Below the pieces are notes generated by a model. It had not been told where the DNA came from. It searched no databases and was given only the letters and a program-made list of their open reading frames with translations. Below, piece by piece: positions 1 to 12,343 of a stretch of DNA of 64,000 nt; positions within the stretch are counted from its first letter, which is position 1, and every line of letters begins with the position of its first letter. The translations under genes and the position numbers were made by a program. The stretch spans positions 1 through 64,000 of IMG/VR virus record IMGVR_UViG_3300047160_005605, one strand, 5' to 3'. The stretch comes from a virus (taxonomy: Duplodnaviria; Caudoviricetes).

Positions 1-576
1 GCGGCGCTCATTAAGATGCACAGTCGCAACTTCTTCAGCACTGTTGAAAAGAGACAGCGCTCAACTCTGACGCACACGATTACGTGTGCTGTGCTCGCAG
101 CGTAGCGAACGCAATTGACAAATCGACTCAAGACTCAACTTTGAGCGCCCAGACGCGCCACAAGCGATTTGTGAACGTCTAACAAGTGCTCAAAGCGAAT
201 AGCTCTAGACGTGCTTTCGTTGTGTCTGCTCTCTGCTCGACATGTAATCACTCGCACTGTGCTCTGTGTGCTGTGCGAACTATTCACAGTGCTCTTGTGA
301 GCGACAGCAAGCTTTCAATCACTGCGTTAATCTTTCGACTGAGAGAGCAACAGATAAAAGCGACAGCGCCTGAGAGCATATCTCTGTGAGTCAAGCGAGC
401 ACAGCAACAGCGCGGCGCTATCGAGCGCCAATTGCGCCAAGCGACTTACACAAGCTGAGCGTCACTCAAGAGCGAGTGACGTGCACTTGTCTAAGCTGTG
501 TTCGTCATGAGTGACACAAGCAAGTCACTTTTCAGTGACAGTCGCAAGCTTCAATTGACTTGAGACACAAGCGCTC

Positions 577-645
577 AGCGAGCACAGCATCAAGCTGTGC
601 TCGCTGTCGCTTAGACGCTTGCTCTGTGTGCGAGCGTCTAAGCGA
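577..645. repeat. Two adjacent perfect inverted repeats
   Basis: agcgagcacagc(577-588)/gctgtgctcgct(594-605) and tcgcttagacgct(607-619)/agcgtctaagcga(633-645). Confidence 0.85.
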
Positions 646-703
646 GCGCTGTCTTGTGACAGCGTATTGTCAACGTGTCTCAAATTGAAAGAGAGCTAGA
701 CAA

Positions 704-1291
704 ATGCAAGTTGTTTTCACTGAGCGACAGCGCCAGCTATTGGCGCTTGCTGAGCGCTGGCGCAAGAGTCAGCGCGAGCAGCGCAAGCAGAGCGAGCAAG
801 AGCAGCGCGAAGCGAAAGCGAGCGTCAGCAAACGCTTGACGCGAAGCGAGCAAGAGCAGCTAGCAAGCGCCCGCATTGCACAGCGCAAGCGAGCGCAAGA
901 GCAGCAAGAGCAAGAGCAGCGCGCCAAGCGCTCTGCTCTCTTGTGCGAACTAGCTGCGAAGCGCGTCAGCTTTCAAGCTGTGTGCAAAAAAGCTTATATA
1001 AGCAAGCTTGAATACGACAGCGCCAAGCAAAAGCACGTCAAGCGCACAATCGTCATTCGCTGTCGCACGTTGTACATAAGCGCTGACGCGCTCAACACTG
1101 TGCGAAAGCTGTTCTTGAGCACACGTAACAAAGAAGTCAGATATGTGCTGAGCGAAGCGAAAGCGCCCGATGATACAGACTATCGGCGCGTAGCGTCACT
1201 CACACACAATGAGGCGCTTGATTATCTGACGCGCTTGCTGACAAAAGATCGAGCATACACTGCAATGCATGAGCTACTGAATTGTAATTGA
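704..1291 (+). CDS. Hypothetical early protein with Q/E/R-rich coiled-coil N-terminus; contains no Gly
   Basis: 195-aa ORF preceded by the leader box GTGTCTCAA...AAAGAGAGCTA; followed by a terminator-like hairpin. Confidence 0.75.
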   Translation: MQVVFTERQRQLLALAERWRKSQREQRKQSEQEQREAKASVSKRLTRSEQEQLASARIAQRKRAQEQQEQEQRAKRSALLCELAAKRVSFQAVCKKAYISKLEYDSAKQKHVKRTIVIRCRTLYISADALNTVRKLFLSTRNKEVRYVLSEAKAPDDTDYRRVASLTHNEALDYLTRLLTKDRAYTAMHELLNCN

Positions 1292-1299
1292 GTCAAGCG

Positions 1300-1343
1300 A
1301 AGCTGAGTGAGTGACAAGCAATTGTCACTCACTCAGCTTTTGC
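1300..1343 (+). terminator. 18-bp perfect hairpin followed by a T-run, likely intrinsic terminator
   Basis: aagctgagtgagtgacaa-gcaa-ttgtcactcactcagctt then ttgc, just after the 704-1291 stop. Confidence 0.6.
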
Positions 1344-1348
1344 AGCTT

Positions 1349-1388
1349 TTGCGAAAGCATTGACAAGCGTATGTCAATGCTTTCGCAA
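1349..1388. repeat. 17-bp perfect inverted repeat containing TTGACA on both strands
   Basis: ttgcgaaagcattgaca-agcgta-tgtcaatgctttcgcaa. Confidence 0.8.
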
Positions 1389-1469
1389 GTGCTGTTAGCT
1401 GTGCACACACTTGAGCAGAGCGAGCACTTTGCTTGCTCTTGCTACTTCAGCACAGCGAGAGAGCTAGAC

Positions 1470-2021
1470 ATGTCACAAGTCAATTTTGCAGACGTTGTAA
1501 ACTGCGGCGCGCTGAGTGACAATGCTATGTCACAAGCGCTCAAGTCGCTCGCGATGCGAAGCGCTGCTCGCAGCACAGCGAGCAAGAGCGACAGCAAGAG
1601 CGACAAGCGCAAGCGCAAGAGCGCCAAGAGCGCGAAAGCGAGCGTCAGCGCCCAGACGTACGTGCAGACGAGAGCACAGCACAGAGAACAGTATTACAGC
1701 AAGCGCAAGATCGCTCATCATGCGAACACTGCTCAATTCAGTGTCAAGCGCCCCGGCGTAATCGCAACGATTATTGACGTGTTGCGAGCAGCGAGCGAGC
1801 AGCGCCCAGTGACGAAAGAGCAAGTGCTCGACAAGCTGTGCAAGCGCTTCACTGAGCGCCCGCGCGAGCACATGAAAGCGACTGTTAGTATGCAAGTCAA
1901 AAGCGGTTTGCGAATCGAAAAGCAGCTTGAGGTCAGCGAAAACGAAAAAGGTTTTTGGCTGACGCAAGAAGCTATCGACAAGAGCAAAGCGAGCGTCAGC
2001 ACAGCACCCAGCACGAACTAA
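1470..2021 (+). CDS. Basic protein with C-terminal winged-helix-like domain (paralog 1 of 3)
   Basis: ATG at 1470 after GAGAGAGCTAGAC; C-terminal GVIATIIDVL...PVTKEQVLDKL...GFWL aligns with 8550-9701 and 18364-18891. Confidence 0.8.
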   Translation: MSQVNFADVVNCGALSDNAMSQALKSLAMRSAARSTASKSDSKSDKRKRKSAKSAKASVSAQTYVQTRAQHREQYYSKRKIAHHANTAQFSVKRPGVIATIIDVLRAASEQRPVTKEQVLDKLCKRFTERPREHMKATVSMQVKSGLRIEKQLEVSENEKGFWLTQEAIDKSKASVSTAPSTN

Positions 2022-2028
2022 GTCGATT

Positions 2029-2100
2029 GAAGCGAGCACAGCACACATGCTGTGCTCGCTTCGCTTGCGCTGTCGCTCTGACAGCGCAAGCGAAGCGAGC
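2029..2100. repeat. Two overlapping, mutually exclusive perfect hairpins (15 bp and 21 bp)
   Basis: 2029-2043/2048-2062 and 2054-2074/2080-2100 share 2054-2062. Confidence 0.85.
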
Positions 2101-2169
2101 AAGCGCCTAGCTGCTCGCGCCCAGCGCCCCAAGCGCTGAGCGACGAGAGGAAAGGTTGCGCTCGCTGTA

Positions 2170-2229
2170 AAGGGTTACGCGCGTAAGGGTTACGCTGCGT
2201 AAGAGGTAAGGTGTCTCAAGCGTAAGAGG
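2170..2229. repeat. Short direct repeats and palindromes at the edge of the GG-free leader
   Basis: AAGGGTTACGC at 2170 and 2185; GCGTAAG(A)GG at 2181, 2197 and 2220; palindromes TTACGCGCGTAA and TTACGCTGCGTAA. Confidence 0.75.
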
Positions 2230-2260
2230 AGCTATCTGCGGAAGTTCCTGAACTCTGCTC

Positions 2261-2464
2261 TTGCAAGAGGCAGCGCAAGCTGCGAACGAAGAGGATCCGA
2301 AGTGCAAGGGAGTCTGCAATGAACGGAGCCCCGAGCGACGTTCCCCGCCGAAGAAGAGAAGAGAATGGGATTGTGAGAGGTGCGGTCGGGGTTGGATTGA
2401 AGTTCCTGCCTGGGTCCGAACCGTCAGCGAAGCGCACGCATCGGCGGAAGAGGACCTGAAGTGA
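2261..2464 (+). CDS. Small hypothetical protein with CxxC motifs
   Basis: CKGVC and CERC motifs; stop codon embedded in repeat element copy 1; TTG start uncertain. Confidence 0.5.
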   Translation: MQEAAQAANEEDPKCKGVCNERSPERRSPPKKRREWDCERCGRGWIEVPAWVRTVSEAHASAEEDLK

Positions 2465-2552
2465 CTCCCTCTACCATGCTCTCGCAAGAGAGCATGGACT
2501 AGGTAGCCATTTCGGTTATCTGTGTCTCAACTCAAGTCAAAGGAGCTAAGTT
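2462..2552 (+). promoter_or_regulatory. Intergenic structured repeat, copy 1 of 7, plus leader box and RBS
   Basis: TGACT-C-CCT-CTA-CC[atgctctc GCAA gagagcat]GG-ACT-AGG-T-AGCCA, then TGTGTCTCAACTCAAGTCAAAGGAGCTA. Confidence 0.8.
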
Positions 2553-2900
2553 ATGAAAGGTACGGTGTTATGCGCCGTCTTGGTTGGCTTGTGCATAGGC
2601 TGCGAACTACCTAAGAGCGAACCAAGCGCTCAAGAGGCTATCGCAGCGGCCAAACTCATGATTGGAAGGGAACTCGCTGCGCTCCACGTTGATTCCATTT
2701 ACTTCCCCGATGATTCCGGGGAATACTGGGTCACATGGCAGAGCGACGAAAAAGGGGTCATGCACGCTATCGTGCGCGGAGTTGCTAACCTGCGCACTTC
2801 GGAAGAGGACCTCAGACTGCAATCGTGGAAGCTGGACCTGACTTACGACAAGGAAAAGCAAGTCTGGCAATCGCACGGTATGAATTGGTCTCGACAATGA
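2553..2900 (+). CDS. Putative lipoprotein
   Basis: Hydrophobic N-terminus ending in lipobox-like LCIGC; AAAGGAG RBS. Confidence 0.7.
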   Translation: MKGTVLCAVLVGLCIGCELPKSEPSAQEAIAAAKLMIGRELAALHVDSIYFPDDSGEYWVTWQSDEKGVMHAIVRGVANLRTSEEDLRLQSWKLDLTYDKEKQVWQSHGMNWSRQ

Positions 2901-2981
2901 CGGTCCCCATTACCGCGCTTGCGAGAGCGAGCGCGGACCTGGTGATCGTTTGGTGTCTCAATTCAAGTCAAAGGAGCTAAC
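2898..2981 (+). promoter_or_regulatory. Intergenic structured repeat, copy 2 of 7
   Basis: ACGGTC-C-CCA-TTA-CC[gcgcttgc GAGA gcgagcgc]GG-ACC-TGG-T-GATCGT, then GTGTCTCAATTCAAGTCAAAGGAGCTA. Confidence 0.85.
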
Positions 2982-3497
2982 ATGGGTAAGAAGATCGTCA
3001 AGAGCATTGCGGAATTGTGTGAGGATAAGGATGCCTACTGCCAAAGCGGTTACATCCGAATGAAGGACCTCATGAACCGATCAGGTCCCATGACCGATGA
3101 GACGTTCATGGATACGCAAGAAGGCGAGAAAGGGTGGCTGGAAAAACTCGGCATCAAAGAGGATGACGTGGTCTTCGTTTCCTTCTACAACGTCGCCGCT
3201 GATGATTACTGTCTCAAGCTGGAAGGGTACGAACTCTTCGCGGAAATGGACGATTATACCGTAATCGTCTATAAGGACGGGAAGCTGATCGGCGGGTACT
3301 ACTGCTCGACAAGAGGTTGCGCCTATCATGCGAATTGCTGGATCGGCAATACTGACCCCGAGCAATTCCTCGGTGCGGTCAGTTGGGATGACGAGAAGGA
3401 AGGAGTCAAAGCGCATACCTGGTTCAAGACCACCAGCGATATCGCAAAGGACCTTGCAATCGACCATCAGAACCGCGTCGTCAACCCCCTGCGATGA
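2982..3497 (+). CDS. Hypothetical early protein
   Basis: 171-aa ORF flanked by repeat elements, strong RBS. Confidence 0.8.
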   Translation: MGKKIVKSIAELCEDKDAYCQSGYIRMKDLMNRSGPMTDETFMDTQEGEKGWLEKLGIKEDDVVFVSFYNVAADDYCLKLEGYELFAEMDDYTVIVYKDGKLIGGYYCSTRGCAYHANCWIGNTDPEQFLGAVSWDDEKEGVKAHTWFKTTSDIAKDLAIDHQNRVVNPLR

Positions 3498-3567
3498 CTC
3501 CCATTACCGCGCTCGTCAGAGCGCGGACCTGGTAGCCATTCCAAACTCAAGTCAAAAAGGAGCTAAG
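3494..3567 (+). promoter_or_regulatory. Intergenic structured repeat, copy 3 of 7
   Basis: ATGACT-C-CCA-TTA-CC[gcgctc gtca gagcgc]GG-ACC-TGG-T-AGCCAT, then CTCAAGTCAAAAAGGAGCTA. Confidence 0.85.
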
Positions 3568-4329
3568 ATGGGAAAGAAGCGCAAGCGTGTTTCCGCTGAA
3601 AGGCGGCTCCGCGAGCGCGATGAGCAGGAATCCAAACCAACTCTGTGTTGGCACGGACCTGATGAGCGTGAGGATGACTTGACTTCGGATCACATTTGGG
3701 AAACTGAGTGTGGATCTTACCGAATCATACGTTCGGTGAGCAAGTTGGGTCAAACGAACCGCTTCATCGCGCTCGTGAAGGAGCAGTATCACAATGGTCC
3801 TAGCTGGGACTTCGTTGACCGCCGCCCCGAAGGGAACTATCCGAGAGAGCATCGCACTTTACCGGATGCTTTTCAGGCAGTGAATATGCACTGTCTGGAA
3901 CGGCGAAAAGTTGTCCCCACTAGCAATGAGGAAGAGGTGTTGGTTAGCGCTGAAAAGCAGAAACTAACACTTCTCCCCTATGCTGTCCCCGCAAGTCGCC
4001 TAATAGCCAGCAATGCATTGCCTTCGCCCTCTCCGCGAGCACCTAGCAAAGCTAGCTCTCCAAAAGCTAGCTCAAGCTCAACGGTGAGGAGAAACGGCGT
4101 GCTGGTATTCGGGCGCTATCCGTTGTCGAGAGTAGGCAACTGGATGGGACTGAAAGGTGGATGGGACCTTGCTCGCGCCAAGCGAGCGCTTGAGAAGGTC
4201 GGTGTAGACCTTGCGAGCGTGAAGGATTCGACGCTCAAGACCGCCTTGACAGACGGAAGGAACCCCAAGTATTCTAAACCGGCTGACTTGATGGATTCGG
4301 AAATCAAGCAGCTGGAAGGAGTGAAGTAA
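3568..4329 (+). CDS. Hypothetical early protein with N-terminal VSAERRL motif
   Basis: ATG 3568 follows AAGGAGCTAAG; the longer ORF in the track runs through the repeat element. Confidence 0.8.
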   Translation: MGKKRKRVSAERRLRERDEQESKPTLCWHGPDEREDDLTSDHIWETECGSYRIIRSVSKLGQTNRFIALVKEQYHNGPSWDFVDRRPEGNYPREHRTLPDAFQAVNMHCLERRKVVPTSNEEEVLVSAEKQKLTLLPYAVPASRLIASNALPSPSPRAPSKASSPKASSSSTVRRNGVLVFGRYPLSRVGNWMGLKGGWDLARAKRALEKVGVDLASVKDSTLKTALTDGRNPKYSKPADLMDSEIKQLEGVK

Positions 4330-4355
4330 GGTGAAACTGTCGAAGAAACACGCGA

Positions 4356-4733
4356 TTGGACCAGATCCTCAAGAACAGCACGTACCTTCCCGAAGCGGGT
4401 TTGGTAGTGCAGCTTCGCAAGGCGCTGGAAAAGCTGGGCGAGGTAGCGCTCGGTCAGCTAAACGTCATCATCATGTGCAAGGAATCGGATGCACGGATGA
4501 CGTTTGTGATGGAAATTGCCAATCGGGAAGTCCCGGAAAGGAAACCGCCCTGGGTGGTGCACTTCCGTCGTAATGATGGAACGGATGAGATTTTTGGTTC
4601 ATTCGAGGACGAAAAGGCAGCCGACGAGTGGACCGAGATGTTTATCGCTCAGTGCGAGAAGGAGGACGGAAAGTTCGATGGCGTCTGCGCTCCTCAAGAG
4701 CTGTCCGACCCGAAGTTTTCCGATCCCGCGTAA
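4356..4733 (+). CDS. Hypothetical early protein
   Basis: 125-aa ORF whose TAA forms the start of repeat copy 4. Confidence 0.7.
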   Translation: MDQILKNSTYLPEAGLVVQLRKALEKLGEVALGQLNVIIMCKESDARMTFVMEIANREVPERKPPWVVHFRRNDGTDEIFGSFEDEKAADEWTEMFIAQCEKEDGKFDGVCAPQELSDPKFSDPA

Positions 4734-4811
4734 CGATCCCCATTACCACCCTCTCGCGTGAGAGGGTGGACCTGGTGACCGTTCTGTGTCTCAAGTGAAA
4801 GGAGCTAGGTT
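4731..4811 (+). promoter_or_regulatory. Intergenic structured repeat, copy 4 of 7
   Basis: AACGATC-C-CCA-TTA-CC[accctctc gcgt gagagggt]GG-ACC-TGG-T-GACCGTT, then TGTGTCTCAAGTGAAAGGAGCTA. Confidence 0.85.
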
Positions 4812-5432
4812 ATGCTGTGGAAAGCCAGCAGTGTGTACGATGCAGGAACCATTTCCTTCGACATGGCCGACACTTTCCAGGCCGCTTGGGAGTATCTTTG
4901 GGATAAAAACCAAAAGCTCCTCAAGAAATGGGACCGCTCGTACTACCACTACGTCTCGGCGACGGATCTGGTGCGGCGCTTCCGCGCTTCGCTGGTCGAG
5001 CGCATTGACAAGCGACCGTATGGGTCGCTCGATTGCGACGGCTACGGTGTGCGCGTGCATCTCAACGGCAAGGGCATGACCCTGCTTGGATGGGCACGCG
5101 ACTGGTTGTATTGTCAGGTCCGAGCAGGGAAGCTCGAGGCGTACAACCCGAAAGGTTCGACCTGCAGCGGTTTGCGCTTCCGACCTGTAGGGGCTTCCTA
5201 CTCGGCAGCGGAGATCGAGCTGCGCAGCCTCAGCAAGGAGGAGAGGTCGCGCCGCTATCGCATTTACCACGCAAAGGACGTGGAAGGCGGTGCTCTGTGT
5301 GGTGTCAAGAACCGAAGCATGGGCGGTCGGCATCCGTTCCGAAAGCGCATCGCTATCGTCGGTGAGGATGGCAAGGTGACGTGCAAGCGCTGTCTCCGCG
5401 CGATGGAGATGCGGAAGTTCCTAAACTCCTGA
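4812..5432 (+). CDS. Hypothetical early protein with C-terminal Cys/His motif (YH...LCG...VTCKRC)
   Basis: 206-aa ORF, strong RBS. Confidence 0.8.
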   Translation: MLWKASSVYDAGTISFDMADTFQAAWEYLWDKNQKLLKKWDRSYYHYVSATDLVRRFRASLVERIDKRPYGSLDCDGYGVRVHLNGKGMTLLGWARDWLYCQVRAGKLEAYNPKGSTCSGLRFRPVGASYSAAEIELRSLSKEERSRRYRIYHAKDVEGGALCGVKNRSMGGRHPFRKRIAIVGEDGKVTCKRCLRAMEMRKFLNS

Positions 5433-5437
5433 GGAAT

Positions 5438-5530
5438 TGACGATCCCCATTACCACCCTCCTGTGAGGAAGGAGGGTGGACCTGGTGACCGTTATGTGTT
5501 TCAAGTTCAAGTCGAAAGGAGCTAGGTACT
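5438..5530 (+). promoter_or_regulatory. Intergenic structured repeat, copy 5 of 7
   Basis: GACGATCCCCATTACC[accctcct gtgagga aggagggt]GGACCTGGTGACCGTT, then TGTGTTTCAAGTTCAAGTCGAAAGGAGCTA. Confidence 0.85.
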
Positions 5531-5845
5531 ATGTACAACATGCGGAAAGCTGTGGATGCAGGGTTGCGCCAGCAGGACCATTTGGATCCGAACTGGTTCA
5601 ACAAGATTTACCGCACCAAGCTGCACATGGGAAGCTGCAAGGACTGTATGCTCGGTCAGCAGTACGGCGACTTTGAGGAAGGAGTCAAAGCGCTCGGACT
5701 GGATGACGAATCGGCGGTGAACTTGGGGTATTCGATTCCGCGCTTCATGATCTACGATGGGTGCGATTTGGTTGACCGGTTCTGGAAAGCGCTGAATCGC
5801 ATGTGGAAGGAAGCGATCATGGATCGGGAATGCTGGACCAGCTGA
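5531..5845 (+). CDS. Hypothetical early protein
   Basis: 104-aa ORF between repeat copies 5 and 6; CxxC (CKDC). Confidence 0.8.
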   Translation: MYNMRKAVDAGLRQQDHLDPNWFNKIYRTKLHMGSCKDCMLGQQYGDFEEGVKALGLDDESAVNLGYSIPRFMIYDGCDLVDRFWKALNRMWKEAIMDRECWTS

Positions 5846-5927
5846 CGATCCCCATTACCGCCCTGGCAACAGGGCGGACCTGGTGACCGTTGGTTACCAT
5901 TCAAGTCAATTGGAAAGGAGCTATGCT
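5843..5927 (+). promoter_or_regulatory. Intergenic structured repeat, copy 6 of 7
   Basis: GACGATCCCCATTACC[gccctg GCAA cagggc]GGACCTGGTGACCGTT, then TCAAGTCAATTGGAAAGGAGCTA. Confidence 0.85.
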
Positions 5928-7052
5928 ATGGTTAAGACAGCAGAAAGGCGATTGTCCAGGGTGGATGTTATCCGGAGCAAGTTCGGACAACTCCGAAAAG
6001 ACCTGAACTACTTCCTGATCGAGAGGCAAATCGAGATTGACTTGGTCCTTGCTGCTATGGTCTGTGCAGAGCATTGCCTGCTAGTAGGCGAGCCGGGAAC
6101 GGCGAAAAGCTTGCTGGTTAGCAATGTGCGCAAGGCTATAGAAGGAGCCAAGAAACCCTTCACCGTGCACTGCTGCAAAGACACTACAAGAGGGGCGGTT
6201 TTCGGACCGACCAAGCTGAGTGCTTTGAAGGATGATCGCACGGATCGGGCACTGGCCGGTGGCGCTGCCGATACGCACTTCCTCATCCTAGAGGAAGTGT
6301 TCAAAGCAGGTCCCGCCGTTCTCGATATGTTCCTCATGCTGATTAACGAGAGGGTGTATGAGGAGGGCTTGGTTTCTGCCGAGGCTCCTCTGCGCTTCTG
6401 TCTCGCGGTCAGCAATGAGTGGAAGCCTGAAGGTTGCGAGGCAGCGCTCGCAGCTTTCTTCGATCGGTTCTTGTTCAGGAAGGAGGTCAAGCGCGTCAGC
6501 ATGAGGTCCTTGGATCGGTTGCTGTTCAGTGATATCCGCTTCGATCCGAAGGACAAGATCACGCTCGAGGAGCTTGATACGGCCACGAAGGTCGTGGAAG
6601 GGTACGAGATGACGAAGGAGGCAAGGGAAAGCTTCCGAACGATCATCGAGAACTTGCACGCGGAAGGTATCTTCCCTGGTGATCGCCGAATGCGCAAGGC
6701 GGTGAAGGCCGCTAAGGCATACGCTTTCATCTGTCAGGACGTGGAAGTGGAGACCAAGCATCTGGATATCCTAGCCCATGTGCTTTGGAATGACCCAGAG
6801 GAGCAACCGAAAAAGGCTGCTCGCATCATCGGAGTCATTGCCAATCCGACGGGGACGAAGATTACCCAGTTGCAGGAGGAGATGGAGGATGTGGTGGCCA
6901 AGAACACTCCTCAGGAGGCCGTTCCGAAGCTGAAGCACATCCAAGCTCAACTCGCCGACCTTCCAATGAATCCCCGCAAGGCGGACGCATTGGAGTATGT
7001 CGCGGACATGATTAAGGACCGCTATGACGCCGTGATAGGAAGGAGGTCGTGA
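5928..7052 (+). CDS. MoxR/RavA-family AAA+ ATPase
   Basis: Walker A GEPGTAKS, Walker B LILEE, SNE sensor, FFDRF arginine finger, DRR lid motif. Confidence 0.9.
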   Translation: MVKTAERRLSRVDVIRSKFGQLRKDLNYFLIERQIEIDLVLAAMVCAEHCLLVGEPGTAKSLLVSNVRKAIEGAKKPFTVHCCKDTTRGAVFGPTKLSALKDDRTDRALAGGAADTHFLILEEVFKAGPAVLDMFLMLINERVYEEGLVSAEAPLRFCLAVSNEWKPEGCEAALAAFFDRFLFRKEVKRVSMRSLDRLLFSDIRFDPKDKITLEELDTATKVVEGYEMTKEARESFRTIIENLHAEGIFPGDRRMRKAVKAAKAYAFICQDVEVETKHLDILAHVLWNDPEEQPKKAARIIGVIANPTGTKITQLQEEMEDVVAKNTPQEAVPKLKHIQAQLADLPMNPRKADALEYVADMIKDRYDAVIGRRS

Positions 7053-8452
7053 TGCCTAGCAAAGAGGAATTGCTGAAAATGTTCAACCTTGACAAGGGGT
7101 TGAGCAAGTCAGCGCCTGCACCGTCAAAGCCTGTCGTGCGCAAGGAAGCGCCGCAGGTCGTCAGGGATAGGGATAACTGCCTTATCCTTGACGAATGGGA
7201 TCAGGATCGCGGGATGGTGATGGCTCGCAAATTGGGCAATCCAGAGAGCGACCATCTATCCCAGTCAGCGCTCGCTGACTTGCATGGAGTGTGCTTCAAA
7301 CCTGATCCACAATTCGCTGAGGGCTGCAAGGACGAGAATCGAGAAAGGTTCATCAAGACCCTTCTTGAGTCCTCGGAATTTGCAGGTCTCAAGGCGAGCA
7401 CCACGCTAGTCGTTACCGCCAGTGAGCGTGCTGCCTACAATCTCGCCGAAGAGCTGGGCAAGGTGTGCGAAGCTGAAAAGCATCGCAAACCGAAACCTGA
7501 CTCCGCAAAGGAGGAGAGAGCGAAGGCAGGAGCGTTCATCCGAGCGGTAGCGAAGGGTGTGGACAAGACCGAAAAGGAGGTCGAAGAGATGGATGGCATC
7601 TGCCATGCGATGGGCATGGGTGAAGGCATGAGAGGTCACAATCTTGCTCCGGAACAACTCGCTGAGTTGTTCAACAAGGTTAGAAATAACCCTGTCGTGA
7701 GAAGGATCTGTGAGCTAGCGGGTCGTTACCGTCTCAGCGCTCAGAGCAAGCAGAGGAACAAGGTCGTTCACGGTTACGATGATATGGTGGGTCTGTGTCT
7801 GGACGATACGCTCGGTCTCCTGCTCCCAGAAGAGTTAATGCTTTTGGGAGAGGATGACGAGCTAGGTCTGGACGCGGCGCGCCGTCTCATGGAACGGGAA
7901 ACACTCGCCTTCGACTATCGCAGCATCGAGAAGGTAGCGAAAGGTTCCATTCTCATCACAACCGATGAGAGTGGTTCGATGCACGGCGAGCCTAATGCCA
8001 ACGCAAAAGCCTTCGCATTGGCGATGGCATGGATCGCACGCAAGCAGAATCGCTGGTGTGGTTTAGTTGGCTACAGTGGAGGCGATCCCGGTTTGCTGCT
8101 GACGCTACCTCCCCACAAGTGGGATGAGCTAGCCGTTCTTGAATGGATGGCTCACTTCTACGGTCGGGGGAGCGATCGTGACGTTCCGGTAGTCGAATTG
8201 CCAGACTTCTACCGGCAGATGAAAGCGCCGAAAGGCAAGACGGATCTGGTGATGATTACCGACGCGATCTGTCATCTGGATGCTGGCGAGATTGCAAGGT
8301 TCAACGATTGGAGAAAGGAGGAGAAGGTTCACTCAATCGCTCTTATCATCGGCAGGGAAGCGGGTGATCTGAAGCAGGTATGTGATGAGGTCTACTACCA
8401 AGCGCAGCTTGGAGTAGAGAACGAAGGTGTGGAAAAGTGTCTCTCTATTTGA
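7049..8452 (+). CDS. von Willebrand factor A domain protein (ViaA-like partner of MoxR)
   Basis: MIDAS DESGSM, distal ITDA; directly follows the MoxR ATPase. Confidence 0.85.
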   Translation: MMPSKEELLKMFNLDKGLSKSAPAPSKPVVRKEAPQVVRDRDNCLILDEWDQDRGMVMARKLGNPESDHLSQSALADLHGVCFKPDPQFAEGCKDENRERFIKTLLESSEFAGLKASTTLVVTASERAAYNLAEELGKVCEAEKHRKPKPDSAKEERAKAGAFIRAVAKGVDKTEKEVEEMDGICHAMGMGEGMRGHNLAPEQLAELFNKVRNNPVVRRICELAGRYRLSAQSKQRNKVVHGYDDMVGLCLDDTLGLLLPEELMLLGEDDELGLDAARRLMERETLAFDYRSIEKVAKGSILITTDESGSMHGEPNANAKAFALAMAWIARKQNRWCGLVGYSGGDPGLLLTLPPHKWDELAVLEWMAHFYGRGSDRDVPVVELPDFYRQMKAPKGKTDLVMITDAICHLDAGEIARFNDWRKEEKVHSIALIIGREAGDLKQVCDEVYYQAQLGVENEGVEKCLSI

Positions 8453-8461
8453 AAGGGAGGC

Positions 8462-8549
8462 TGACGATCCCCATTACCGGGCCTGTCGTGCCGCAGGCCC
8501 GGACCTGGTGACCGTTTGTCTATTGTGTCTCAACGAAAGGAGCTATGTT
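8462..8549 (+). promoter_or_regulatory. Intergenic structured repeat, copy 7 of 7
   Basis: GACGATCCCCATTACC[gggcctg tcgtgccg caggccc]GGACCTGGTGACCGTT, then TGTGTCTCAACGAAAGGAGCTA. Confidence 0.85.
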
Positions 8550-9701
8550 ATGACCGCCTCTATTCAGACCAACGAGAAGGGCTCGAGGAAAGGTCGGCGA
8601 GCCGCCGCCATCAAGGAGTTGTCGGAAGGCAAGTCGCGCTTCCTCGGAGAGTTAGTCATACTCTCCACGGGGACGGGTAAAAAGCACAAGCTGAAGGAGA
8701 TTATCTCCGCGCTTGAGTCCTGCGACCTCAACAAAGAGGTTGCCAAGGAGCTTTCCCCGCGGGCTGCCTTCACCCGTGCCGCACGCGAACTGGCAGACGA
8801 GAGGGTTATCGACATCCTTCGGGATGAAACGGACCACATCACCTTCCAGTTCACGGCGAAGGCGATGAAGGACTCCGAGTGGAAGTATTCCAAAGAGACC
8901 AACGTCGTTCTGGACAAGATCAGCGGCAAGGTGCGCTGCCCCTCTTCAAATATCGAAGAATTGGCGCAGAAGGCACTGGACCGCGCTCTTGAGGAGCGGG
9001 GCACGTCGGATATCACCGAGATGGTGAAGCGTTTGTTCAGCGAGAACGGTGATATCATCTCGGCTCGGGATGAGGGTGGAGTGTACTTTGTGCCGGAGCC
9101 CTATCGGGCATTCTCCGACAAGGTGCAGGACTTCCTCAAGCTGCTCGGACGGCGTATCAATCGCTGGCCAATCCCGGCTGGTGAGGATCGCGCGGACGAG
9201 TCCGTGCAGGACGTGTGCACTTCCTACATCCAGAGGCTGTGCGAGCAGCTGGACGTTGCCATCAGCGGGTTCGGTACGAGCACCCGGGCGACGACCATCG
9301 AAGCGACTGCCGCTCATATCAATGAGTTGATGGTAAAGGTTGAGGCCTTTGCCAGCTACTTCGGCGATATGAAGGAGAGCAGTCTGGCGTTGGTCGCTTC
9401 CAAGCAGAGGATGCTGGCAGAGCAGGTCGATAAGATCGCCGACCTGAAAGCGTCAGCACCTCCGGGCACGAACGGGAGCGGCAAGAAGGTGGGTATCATC
9501 GCCGCAATCATCGAGGTACTGGAAAGCGCCAGTGCCAAGAAGCCGGTGACGCGCGATGAGATCCATGCCAAGTTGGTCGAGAAGTTCCCCGAGCGCGACC
9601 CGAAGGGTATGCGCAATACCGTCATGTCTCAGGTTCCCGGTTGCCTTCTCAAGGAGAAGGGCATCACCGTGAACCGCAATGATCGTGGTTACTGGCTGTA
9701 A
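8550..9701 (+). CDS. DUF6744-like protein fused to C-terminal winged-helix-like domain (paralog 2 of 3)
   Basis: N-terminal LGELV...SPRAAFTRA resembles DUF6744 from memory; C-terminal GIIAAIIEVL...PVTRDEI...GYWL. Confidence 0.65.
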   Translation: MTASIQTNEKGSRKGRRAAAIKELSEGKSRFLGELVILSTGTGKKHKLKEIISALESCDLNKEVAKELSPRAAFTRAARELADERVIDILRDETDHITFQFTAKAMKDSEWKYSKETNVVLDKISGKVRCPSSNIEELAQKALDRALEERGTSDITEMVKRLFSENGDIISARDEGGVYFVPEPYRAFSDKVQDFLKLLGRRINRWPIPAGEDRADESVQDVCTSYIQRLCEQLDVAISGFGTSTRATTIEATAAHINELMVKVEAFASYFGDMKESSLALVASKQRMLAEQVDKIADLKASAPPGTNGSGKKVGIIAAIIEVLESASAKKPVTRDEIHAKLVEKFPERDPKGMRNTVMSQVPGCLLKEKGITVNRNDRGYWL

Positions 9702-9759
9702 AAGGATTGCACTCCGGCCAAGGAAGGCCTTCTCTTGTCTCAAGTGAAAGGAGCTAACT

Positions 9760-9867
9760 GTGGCTGAACCATTGCGGACTCCGAGGGAACGGCGGGAATA
9801 TAACTCCAAGCTGACGGTTACCCTCAACGGCACTAGGGAAAATCCGTACCACAAGTGGGGATTCTAA
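9760..9867 (+). CDS. Small hypothetical protein (35 aa)
   Basis: GTG after the leader box TGTCTCAAGTGAAAGGAGCTA; translated manually. Confidence 0.5.
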   Translation: MAEPLRTPRERREYNSKLTVTLNGTRENPYHKWGF

Positions 9868-9868
9868 C

Positions 9869-10036
9869 ATGAAACTCAACCTGTTAGCAGCAGATCCCAT
9901 CCCCGATACGGATTACATTCGTAAGACCCTTGCCGGTCTCTTCTCGGAGGAGTTCATCGACCTCTGCTGCAAGAAGTTCGTGCCCGGAAGGGTTATCAAG
10001 TTCGACGTTTACTTCAACGATGAAGGAAAGGAGTAA
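9869..10036 (+). CDS. Small hypothetical protein (55 aa)
   Basis: MKLNLLAADP...DEGKE; TAATG coupling to the next ORF. Confidence 0.55.
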   Translation: MKLNLLAADPIPDTDYIRKTLAGLFSEEFIDLCCKKFVPGRVIKFDVYFNDEGKE

Positions 10037-10281
10037 TGGACAAGTTCATGCTTCGCTTCACCTATAAGGTTCACGGTGAGGACTGCACCGGCGGACCTTA
10101 TAGGGTCTCTGCAACATCATTGCAAGATGCCGTAGCGAAACTCCATACCGCGCTGCTTATGGTAGCGCGATGGAGCGACAACTATTGGCACGGCTGTTAT
10201 GCCTTTGCCAACTACCAAGTCTCAAAGGCACTGGATGACAGCGAGTACACGGAAGATGAGTTGGACAAGTATCTCAAGTAA
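10036..10281 (+). CDS. Hypothetical protein
   Basis: AAGGAG RBS, 81 aa. Confidence 0.7.
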   Translation: MDKFMLRFTYKVHGEDCTGGPYRVSATSLQDAVAKLHTALLMVARWSDNYWHGCYAFANYQVSKALDDSEYTEDELDKYLK

Positions 10282-10435
10282 AGGAAAGGAACCTGGAGCT
10301 ACGTGGAACAACTTCCTACCACCGTTATGGCTAGAGAGCCTGAAGATCGCCGCCTTAGTGATGGTGGGTTTTGAATTGTTGGTCATGGTGGGGACGACGG
10401 TCTGGATCTATCTGTCCCCAGTGTAAGCCGTTCGG

Positions 10436-10469
10436 GCAATAGGGGGAGGATTCTCGCTTCCCCTATTGC
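10436..10469 (+). terminator. Probable intrinsic terminator at the end of the early region
   Basis: gcaatagggggag / cttcccctattgc hairpin followed by attggtttcgtt. Confidence 0.55.
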
Positions 10470-10510
10470 ATTGGTTTCGTTAGCTTGCTAAGCTATGTTA
10501 GAAAGGAGCT

Positions 10511-11452
10511 TTGCCGATGCGAATCAATGACGTGGCACCGAAGTTCTTTACGGATGAACTTTTACGGTGCGCCAAACTTGACCGCAACTGGATAGAGGTC
10601 ATCTCGGGTTTCCCGATGACTCTCCATGCAAATTACCAGGCGCGAGTCAAGCCGGGTATCAAGACATGGGTAGAGAAGGCGTGGGAGCAAGGATCTGACG
10701 CGCTGTCTATGAAGGCGTTGTCTTGGTGGCTGCTAGATGGCCCAAAGGTCTTTGTACCGACCAAGATACAATGCCAGGCGATGGAGCACATAGAGATTAA
10801 CCTGCCCGTCGCGGATTACAGCCAGCCCTATCCCGCCATCATGATTGACCTGCGGAGCATGGGCTATTGTCCATTCGAGAGCGTCCTAGCGTGCCATGAC
10901 TTCTCCGGAGCGCATTGTGTCATCACCTGTTGCATCAATTCGCATGACCACCTCAATGATATTGCCACTACGGTTGGCAGGACCGACTGCATGATTGAGG
11001 AATCCGTGCGGAAGTTCGACGCTAACATAACAGAGGACGAGAGCAGCTTGGCATGCAAAGTGCTGCGGATAGCGCTCAATAGCTGTCTGGCACTGAGCCA
11101 CTATGGCAATCACATCGAGTACCTCTACCCCAAGGAAGTGGACAGCGACCGCAGACTTGCCAGAGAGTACAGCGAGCGTGGCAAGAAGGCACGCCAGCGC
11201 CTGTCCCTTGCCGTGCAAAAGATCAGCTTCGATCAGGAGGTTAGGCTGCACCGTGTAGTCCACAAGCGAGTGGAGCCCGGCGAGCCGACGGGCCGCGAGA
11301 TGCCCCCGCACTGGCGGTCTGGGCATTGGGCGATGCAACCCTATGGGCCTACACAGTCGCTCCGCAAGCGAATCCTACGTCCGGGAGTAATGGTTCGCCG
11401 GGATCTGTTTCTCGGTGACGATTCTGATAGTTCAGCAACCTACCGAGGGTAG
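10511..11452 (+). CDS. Conserved-type phage hypothetical protein with C-terminal PHWRSGHW motif
   Basis: 313-aa ORF; PHWRxGHW...YGP tail recognised as recurrent in phage proteins of unknown function. Confidence 0.75.
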   Translation: MPMRINDVAPKFFTDELLRCAKLDRNWIEVISGFPMTLHANYQARVKPGIKTWVEKAWEQGSDALSMKALSWWLLDGPKVFVPTKIQCQAMEHIEINLPVADYSQPYPAIMIDLRSMGYCPFESVLACHDFSGAHCVITCCINSHDHLNDIATTVGRTDCMIEESVRKFDANITEDESSLACKVLRIALNSCLALSHYGNHIEYLYPKEVDSDRRLAREYSERGKKARQRLSLAVQKISFDQEVRLHRVVHKRVEPGEPTGREMPPHWRSGHWAMQPYGPTQSLRKRILRPGVMVRRDLFLGDDSDSSATYRG

Positions 11453-11695: not shown

Positions 11696-11889
11696 TGGAC
11701 GAACTACTCAAGCAAGTGGAGCGAGTCTGGAAAGCCCTCCTCGAGTATGGGCCGCTTGACGATGGCACTCCTCAAGGAAAGGAGCTAGAAGATGCCATCA
11801 TCGATCTGAGGAAGGCTTCTATCCCTTTCAAATTGCGAAGGAGTAAGCGTGTTAAGAAACGCCATAACCGAAACCTACGGAGAGGTTGA
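11695..11889 (+). CDS. Small hypothetical protein
   Basis: AGGAGG RBS; basic C-terminal tail. Confidence 0.55.
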   Translation: MDELLKQVERVWKALLEYGPLDDGTPQGKELEDAIIDLRKASIPFKLRRSKRVKKRHNRNLRRG

Positions 11890-12343
11890 TAAGCTCTTGC
11901 ACTTCACGGTGCACAAGTTTATCCGTAAGTATGGCGGGGATTATGATACGCTGAGAGCCGATGCCAACTGGCATTTTCTCTCAGCGTATCTATCCTTCAA
12001 GCCATCGAAGTCAAAGTTTTCCACTTGGGTGAGCTATAGAGTCCACATGGGACTGTTGGCGAGCAAGCGCGACGATAAGAAGCGCGCCCACTATCTCAAG
12101 CCGCTACCAACTAAGCTGTACGCTCGCACGGAGAGCACTGCAAGGCAGCTTGCGCGGGACTTGTCAGATGATGCCGGCGCGATCATACGCTTGGTGTTGA
12201 ATATTATCCCTGCCAGCTTCTTTCGACGGCGGCATAACAAGCGCCAAGCGCTAGTTGAATACCTAACTGGCTTGGGTTGGTCTGAGGCTAAGATCGAGCG
12301 TAGCTTCGCCGAGCTAAGAGAGGAGCTATGTACTCAAACCTAA
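11849..12343 (+). CDS. Sigma-70 region 2-like (ECF-type) phage sigma factor
   Basis: LLHFTVHKF...DYDTLRADA...FKPSKSKFSTWV resembles region 2; helical HTH-like C-terminus. Confidence 0.6.
   Translation: MLRNAITETYGEVDKLLHFTVHKFIRKYGGDYDTLRADANWHFLSAYLSFKPSKSKFSTWVSYRVHMGLLASKRDDKKRAHYLKPLPTKLYARTESTARQLARDLSDDAGAIIRLVLNIIPASFFRRRHNKRQALVEYLTGLGWSEAKIERSFAELREELCTQT

Follow-up and report, generated by a model that had tools for sequence, protein, structure and literature searches.

Seven structured hairpins in the early intergenic spacers of a probable Planctomycetota phage

Seven hairpin units in the early region

The DNA studied here is the first 64 kilobases (kb) of a 72,228-nucleotide (nt) virus record, IMG/VR IMGVR_UViG_3300047160_005605, from a member of the Caudoviricetes; this 64,000-nt stretch is called the window below. 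In the open reading frame (ORF) map, genes run rightward until about 38.7 kb and leftward beyond, and the replication block contains a MoxR-type AAA ATPase, its partner gene, a SNF2 helicase, a primase-like protein and a DNA polymerase with a uracil-DNA glycosylase domain. Homologues of the MoxR partner gene (7052-8452) give a weak vWA match. The element of interest is a hairpin that recurs in the spacers between the early genes. A first-pass annotation, made from the sequence alone, had listed seven copies, and all seven were found to be present. Each copy lies on the + strand, in the same direction as the genes, and together the copies occupy every one of the seven spacers of at least 70 nt between 2.0 and 8.6 kb. 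Six copies match the pattern CCCATTACC-N(16-23)-GGACCTGGT exactly, and shuffled sequences gave no match; copy 1 diverges in sequence yet retains the pairing. A covariance model (R1) was built from the seven copies and searched with filters off. It recovered exactly these seven copies, all on the + strand, at scores of 66.7-76.7 bits; neither the window nor the 8 kb of genome beyond it gave a further match. The following list is based, for every copy, on the flank pattern, the RNA fold, the table of base pairs and the covariance-model score, copy 1 not being an exact match to the pattern.

Copy 1: 2460..2511, + strand; divergent subfamily, GACTCCCTCTACC / GGACTAGGTAGCC; apex ATGCTCTC-GCAA-GAGAGCAT; 66.7 bits; RNA fold of -22.4 kcal/mol, z -5.4; compensatory pairs.
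Copy 2: 2899..2950, + strand; G.U replaces A.C; apex with a U.G; GAGA loop; gene 2553-2900 ends at its TGA.
Copy 3: 3493..3540, + strand; subfamily of copy 1; 6-base-pair (bp) apex; GUCA loop; gene 2982-3497 ends at its TGA.
Copy 4: 4732..4783, + strand; gene 4356-4733 ends at its TAA; apex ACCCTCTC-GCGT-GAGAGGGT; top score, 76.7 bits.
Copy 5: 5439..5493, + strand; gene 4812-5432 stops 8 nt upstream of the copy; TGAC kept; 7-nt loop.
Copy 6: 5844..5891, + strand; gene 5531-5845 ends at its TGA; GCAA loop; lies before the MoxR ATPase gene.
Copy 7: 8463..8516, + strand; the vWA-partner gene 7052-8452 stops 10 nt upstream of the copy; precedes gene 8550-9701.

The hairpin is part of a conserved unit that reaches from stop codon to start codon and reads T(G/A)AC, hairpin, U/G-rich stretch, GTGTCTCAA, one to three (N)TCAA repeats, AAAGGAGCTA, start codon. 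The upstream stop codon had been placed inside the 5' arm in five copies. This is firm for four of them (copies 2, 3, 4 and 6); the stop of copy 1 is doubtful because the gene calls of a near-identical ENA contig omit the upstream ORF, 2261-2464. Copies 5 and 7 keep an unused TGAC, the actual stops lying 8-10 nt upstream. That each copy leads into the next ribosome-binding site was confirmed by alignment, in which a leader carrying such a site follows every copy. The leaders, including three that occur with no hairpin, are as follows.

Leader after copy 1: 2512..2552, + strand; U/G-rich, GTGTCTCAA, (N)TCAA repeats and AAAGGAGCTA, then ATG at 2553 (from the alignment and motif positions).
Similar leader after copy 2: 2951-2981, + strand.
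Similar leader after copy 3: 3541-3567, + strand.
Similar leader after copy 4: 4784-4811, + strand.
Similar leader after copy 5: 5494-5530, + strand.
Similar leader after copy 6: 5892-5927, + strand.
Similar leader after copy 7: 8517-8549, + strand.
Hairpin-free leader: 675..703, + strand; GTGTCTCAA...GAGCTA, before gene 704-1291.
Hairpin-free GTGTCTCAA leader: 2211-2234 (motif position).
Hairpin-free GTGTCTCAA leader: 9735-9759 (motif position).

Because the leader occurs alone at 675, 2211 and 9735, hairpin and leader are separable modules, and the spacing between them varies from copy to copy. The genes between the copies are mutually unrelated and most belong to no family; since they are not paralogous, the repeats are not left over from gene duplication. 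Two stretches within the array contain a pair of genes with a copy on either side and none in between: the overlapping MoxR and vWA-partner genes, and likewise genes 3568 and 4356. A promoter reading of GTGTCTCAA was not adopted; no -35-like box at fixed spacing is shared by the sequences upstream of all eight GTGTCTCAA sites compared, and the distance to the hairpin varies.

Two further observations concern the hairpin-free leaders. A - strand copy of TGTGTCTCAA at 558-566 faces left, about 110 nt from the + strand copy at 675-683 before gene 704, and no ribosome-binding site follows it; the divergent pair may hint at a transcription signal rather than a translation leader alone. At 2029-2095 and 2167-2195, after gene 1470-2021, are two strong back-to-back hairpins, followed by a direct repeat, GTAA(A)GGGTTACGC, present twice just 5' of the hairpin-less leader at 2211. 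The 2029-2211 region may be the end of a leader transcription unit and the start of the unit that carries the seven elements.

Pairing, covariation and distribution

RNA folding of each copy bore out the anatomy that had been proposed for the element. In order from the base there are four pairs, an A.C mismatch (G.U in copy 2), 2 bp, a C.U mismatch, 3 bp, a 3x3 internal loop, CC/GG and, at the top, 6-8 more pairs that form a perfect apical stem. The lower stem therefore combines a fixed sequence with two fixed mismatches, and the upper stem is perfect with a variable sequence. Each copy has 22-24 stacked positions, about two A-form turns, and the fold z-scores range from -4.4 to -6.3. The apical loops span 4-8 nt, and GCAA (copies 1 and 6) and GAGA (copy 2) had been read correctly in the first pass. 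The ends of the element are ACGATCC/GACCGT, and its mismatches are symmetric. When the copies were folded in about 200 nt of context, the upper stem was predicted in all of them and the lower stem in the minimum-energy fold of four of the seven.

The compensatory changes claimed earlier are real, as judged by a pair-by-pair count on the alignment of the seven copies. Standard pairs fill 98.4% of the alignment cells, and both sides have changed in 10 of the 18 pairs. None of 500 shuffles reached the observed values, and when the partner was slid by 1-3 columns only 29-41% of the positions paired. Three double changes in the lower stem (CG>UA, UA>CG and CG>UA) are common to copies 1 and 3, copy 1 alone adds a fourth, AU>UA, and in copy 2 the A.C has turned into G.U. 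In the upper stem both sides have changed in six of nine pairs. No single change in the seven-copy alignment disrupts a pair, and the pairing is under selection. The unpaired and mismatched bases, UUA/ACC, A.C and C.U, are near-invariant (fixed in six or seven of the seven copies) while the paired apex drifts; therefore the flanks are either sequence-constrained or homogenised, and the apex is constrained for pairing only. The number of independent covariation events is small because copies 1 and 3 share their variants.

The earlier suggestion that the motif is undescribed agrees with the database searches. No Rfam family matched at its gathering score anywhere in the window, and a search of 2200-9900 at E <= 5 returned one noise match only. 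Scans with the exact-flank pattern gave 65 matches in IMG/VR and four in JGI metagenomes, never more than one copy per contig, a number that by rough estimate is about the chance expectation; on inspection the four JGI matches resemble coding sequence and lack the hairpin. The covariance model found nothing in the early regions of six relatives or in 47 loci from Planctomycetota metagenome-assembled genomes (MAGs), and in 151 genomes of the order Gemmatales it found nothing but one match of 28.6 bits. That match was rejected as chance, its sequence reading as apparently inside a protein-coding region. In none of the searches listed was the element found outside this phage and its 99.9-100% identical strains. 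We conclude that the element is real, that its structure is selected and its orientation specific, and that it is private to this phage lineage.

Four strain contigs, 99.9-100% identical to the window, have the same gene order, and the gene calls of further contigs agree. Gene order between related phages had been proposed as a check on the element; the comparison showed it to be constant in all contigs of this phage. Because of their near-identity, the strain contigs add no independent covariation. One contig from a soil metagenome (L167, JGI 3300032001) has a 9-nt deletion, GGCGGACCT, in the 3' arm of copy 6 (window 5873-5881, L167 5243). The deletion sits between two GG dinucleotides, and no other indel in 8.6 kb exceeds 1 nt; either natural variation or an assembly error induced by the hairpin could account for it.

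The next relatives after the strains have only about 55% MoxR identity. The relatives' early spacers hold GC-rich hairpins, mostly without T-runs, including some before MoxR and DUF6744-like genes, and the flanks of these hairpins are unrelated to those described here. In a distant relative, L081, the homologues of genes 3568 and 4812 are syntenic.

Some of the relatives have early-region features of their own. A contig from a Planctomycetaceae MAG (L099, a distant relative with 37% MoxR identity) has a five-copy early intergenic cassette at 532-5990 with the layout GGCTGGAG-N7-CGATAGT, variable hairpin, CACCACAACAACAC, GGAG and start codon, its leader being CA-rich; in at least two of the copies the conserved box takes in the upstream stop. 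In an 82.5-kb relative, L074 (618-972 and 3772-3811), there are four repeat units of 55 nt, of which three are in tandem, each ending CATCCGCATTCTC and lying ahead of early genes. The CATCCGCATTCTC box recurs further on, directly 5' of a ribosome-binding site, and may be an early promoter or leader signal of that phage. In L081 the MoxR gene looks split (8984-11134), with residues 31-57 at 8984-9064 and the remainder at 10160-11128, and the two parts are separated by an HNH endonuclease gene on the opposite strand; the interruption may be due to an intron, or to some other insertion that carries a homing endonuclease.

Candidate functions of the element

The GNRA loops had been taken to point to function as + strand RNA. 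This argument proved weak. When the - strand was folded as RNA it was as stable as the + strand or more so in six of the seven copies, with a slight advantage, because A.C becomes U.G; neither the GNRA loops nor the wobbles settle the strand, since the - strand folds as well or better. The context does favour the + strand: the element is oriented with the genes, starts at the stop codon, and is followed by a conserved leader and ribosome-binding site. That the element acts as RNA is something we infer, as are its cleavage and the enzyme; folding does not assign the strand.

The five early intergenic spacers of phage T7 (sites between genes 0.3 and 1.3), which we take, following Dunn and Studier 1983, to be the mapped RNase III cleavage sites, were folded and aligned. 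They have fixed flanks, ACTCAAGGT...GTGGCCTTTATGATT, and a variable apex, with GCAA loops in two. Like these, the elements described here are paralogous copies in early, presumably host-transcribed intercistronic spacers, run in the direction of the genes and are followed by the next ribosome-binding site, and each is an irregular hairpin of about two turns with fixed flanks and a variable apex that includes GCAA. The early precursor of T7, about 7000 nt, has five RNase III signals; an idealised RNase III substrate is 22 bp, or two helical turns; and loops or mismatches at the target lead to single-strand cuts that leave stabilising 3' hairpins (PMC3867540). The first-pass analogy to the T7 sites therefore stands, in that the T7 early spacers have the same plan and the helix here has the two turns that RNase III needs (PMC3867540). 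The two families differ in that there is no similarity of sequence or model (R1 gave noise only on T7 bases 1-8000), and since they share no homology the phage element is an analogue, not a homologue, of the T7 sites. The present element also has a symmetric 3x3 loop and two extra fixed mismatches, and its stop codon belongs to the helix. Further, the host here is probably a planctomycete rather than E. coli, and cleavage would have to be supposed.

The reading we favour, and to which we give an even chance of being correct, is that the element is an intercistronic mRNA processing or 3'-end stability signal, with host RNase III the likely enzyme; this includes a weaker form in which the hairpin blocks exonucleases and is not cleaved. 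The early block would be transcribed rightward by host RNA polymerase into a polycistronic mRNA in which the elements are intercistronic. Each spacer would fold from the stop codon into an irregular two-turn helix, host RNase III would bind it, and the loop and mismatches would confine cleavage to a single strand. This would leave a protective hairpin at the 3' end of the upstream cistron, and the downstream cistron would open with a leader that is short, unstructured and CA-rich, followed by a strong Shine-Dalgarno sequence. In this way the transcript would be divided into separately stable units, the MoxR-vWA pair staying on one piece.

The closest genomic relatives of the phage MoxR gene are overwhelmingly in MAGs of Gemmataceae, Gemmatales and other Planctomycetota, and for that reason the host is probably a planctomycete; the nearest cultured phage has a MoxR identity of only 32%. 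RNase III is present in four of four Planctomycetota genomes with relatives of the phage's MoxR gene, these being candidate hosts rather than the identified host, and profile searches of the 72-kb record found no RNase III encoded by the phage. This distribution is consistent with processing by a host enzyme.

Also in favour of the reading count the co-oriented copies in all large early spacers, the two-turn helix, the selected pairing, the plan shared with T7, the lack of terminator and sigma-70 promoter matches in the scans, the unrelated flanking genes, and the hairpins in comparable spacers of the relatives. Several points weigh against such processing. A homologous element is absent from every relative examined, and the L167 deletion may mean that copy 6 is dispensable, or L167 may be misassembled. 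Thermodynamics gives no preference to + strand RNA. In the longer context the lower stem faces competition from other pairings in three of the seven copies. The covariation comes from seven paralogues in one genome, with the variants of copies 1 and 3 shared, and the host assignment comes only from binned MAG contigs. Finally, the strict conservation of the unpaired loop and mismatch bases exceeds the known needs of RNase III, and could mean that a sequence-specific protein is involved.

If RNase III processing were correct, a probable Planctomycetota phage lineage would divide its early message in the manner of T7 with an independently evolved hairpin family. We know of no work on gene expression in this lineage. 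At about 52 nt the element would be a compact, well-defined substrate with which to ask what planctomycete RNase III recognises, and possibly an insulator part for synthetic operons. On its own, as an element of a single lineage, the finding carries moderate weight.

The conserved unpaired bases lead to a tentative alternative, to which we give a small chance: the element may be the operator of a sequence-specific RNA-binding protein, of phage or host, that coordinates translation, decay or elongation of the early gene set. Fixed UUA/ACC, A.C and C.U beside a drifting paired apex would suit a protein that reads sequence, restriction to one lineage is what a co-evolving protein-RNA pair would be expected to show, and the early genes are ORFans of no known function. 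However, none of the early proteins was found to have an RNA-binding or nuclease domain, copy 1 alters two loop bases and four stem positions with the fold kept, and recent spread or gene conversion would explain the conserved flanks equally well. A dedicated phage protein, perhaps an early ORFan, might bind all seven sites and switch the early set on or off, or cut it, but we hold this to be unlikely. If it were so, the dedicated protein would make the array a private RNA operator regulon in a planctomycete phage, and not a generic RNase III substrate.

Strong GC-rich upper stems directly after stop codons also recall transcription terminators, and the elements could be terminators or attenuators lacking a U-tract that produce a graded, polar fall of expression along the early array, possibly overridden later. 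The tails past the lower stem are moderately U/G-rich in five copies, and the hairpins in the same spacers of the relatives include some with T-runs. None of the seven copies fits the terminator consensus, however: a scan for it found no terminator-like stem with T-run in the seven units, while it did pick up a hairpin and T-rich tail at 10436-10469 of this phage. The strong upper stem is followed by a tail beginning GGACCUGG rather than by U residues, GUU/AUU coming only after the lower stem, and a plain terminator would have no need of the conserved lower stem and its mismatches. We regard attenuation as quite unlikely. As for antitermination, which had also been raised in the first pass, nothing points to it; the loops are not conserved, and as many as seven copies is unlike nut or put sites.

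The first-pass annotation had further compared the units to the PeSL cassettes of T4-type phages. PeSLs carry a strong sigma-70 promoter and a stem-loop that acts as a terminator (PMC2839356, PMC4122927). On this model the stop-to-start unit of about 100 bp would provide the homology for shuffling or excising early cassettes. The unit does span exactly from stop to start codon, supplying TGAC/TAAC even where it is unused, and it flanks ORFans in a layout like that of PeSLs. The comparison fails in other respects, and we consider it quite improbable. A scan for sigma-70-like promoters on the + strand found none in any unit (the sigma-70 consensus may not be that of the host), and, as noted above, the terminator is missing as well. 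PeSLs mark indels between close relatives, whereas no gain or loss of genes was seen among the near-identical strain contigs, the gene order is constant in all contigs, and the homologues of 3568 and 4812 keep their order in L081. The variable apex limits uninterrupted identity, for most pairs of copies, to the flanks of about 15 nt and short leader stretches, which disfavours recombination, and two conserved flanks that pair into a lower stem are a feature of the present element and not of PeSLs. Recombination could be a side effect compatible with any function.

A partial parallel is provided by the start-associated sequences, or SAS, together with the extended SAS (ESAS), of Cluster K mycobacteriophages (PMC3203893), in which a conserved leader with a ribosome-binding site lies next to the start codon in one orientation, part of the leaders having, upstream, imperfect inverted repeats that enclose a variable spacer. 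In ESAS the repeats measure 17 bp and the spacer 4-13 bp, their authors found little support for an mRNA hairpin, and SAS and ESAS have no known function (PMC3203893). In the present element, by contrast, the repeats show covariation and enclose a spacer of 16-23 nt that forms a perfect hairpin of its own; the two families are not related in sequence.

The better folding of the - strand in six of seven copies raises the question of a DNA-level hairpin on that strand, either an attC-like single-strand recombination site or an N4-like hairpin promoter. Integron attC sites are likewise imperfect palindromes after each ORF; their ends are fixed, their central spacer is unpaired and their terminal structure varies, and they fold better on the strand opposite the coding strand. 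Here, however, the ends do not fit the R''/R' consensus (RYYYAAC/GTTRRRY), the irregularities are symmetric mismatches and not extrahelical bases, and each unit has a ribosome-binding leader. The profile searches of the 72-kb record found no tyrosine recombinase and no Y1 transposase (Y1_Tnp). They also gave no match to single-subunit (T7-type) RNA polymerase, PF00940, a weak test, as the same search was silent in all 14 control genomes; the largest ORF in the phage has 1077 residues. Loops of 4-8 nt differ from the 3 nt of N4-type promoters. A DNA-level role is very unlikely. It is similarly hard to credit that the element is a selfish or neutral palindromic repeat with no phage function that spread through the early spacers, for, although it is known from a single lineage and one strain has the copy 6 deletion, it shows compensatory changes in both stems, a fixed orientation and exact stop-to-leader placement in every large early spacer, no transposase was found, and a spreading element would preserve its centre and not the flanks alone.

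Other element classes were also compared. REP/RAYT systems differ in that no Y1 (HUH) transposase match was found here and the apex of the hairpin is not conserved. A selenocysteine insertion sequence or stop-codon read-through was rejected: copy 4 has TAA, copies 5 and 7 carry their TGA out of frame, and none of the reading frames runs on. A coding origin of the flanks was rejected, as apex lengths of 16-23 nt break the reading frame; a miniature inverted-repeat mobile element, as the variable part is the centre; and mimicry of CRISPR repeats, as the stems differ among copies.

Minor features of the early region

The window begins with a block, 1-2150, of odd composition, in which AGCG and CAAG words are abundant and GG and CC nearly absent. 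It encodes two low-complexity proteins rich in Ser, Ala, Gln and Lys (704-1291 and 1470-2021). The hairpin family, whose flanks are full of GG and CC, begins only past this block.

A small sigma-like gene lies at 11849-12343, its homologue from a relative having a Sigma70_r2 match. A direct Pfam scan of ORF 10511-11452 found nothing at E <= 0.01; a near-identical gene in an ENA contig has a precomputed Pfam match to PF26125, an AcrVA2-like anti-CRISPR family. The proteins of genes 1470-2021 and 8550-9701 are 43% identical over 74 residues at their C-termini (1740-1961 versus 9477-9701, E 6e-17), so that two early proteins that are otherwise unrelated have this C-terminal domain in common.

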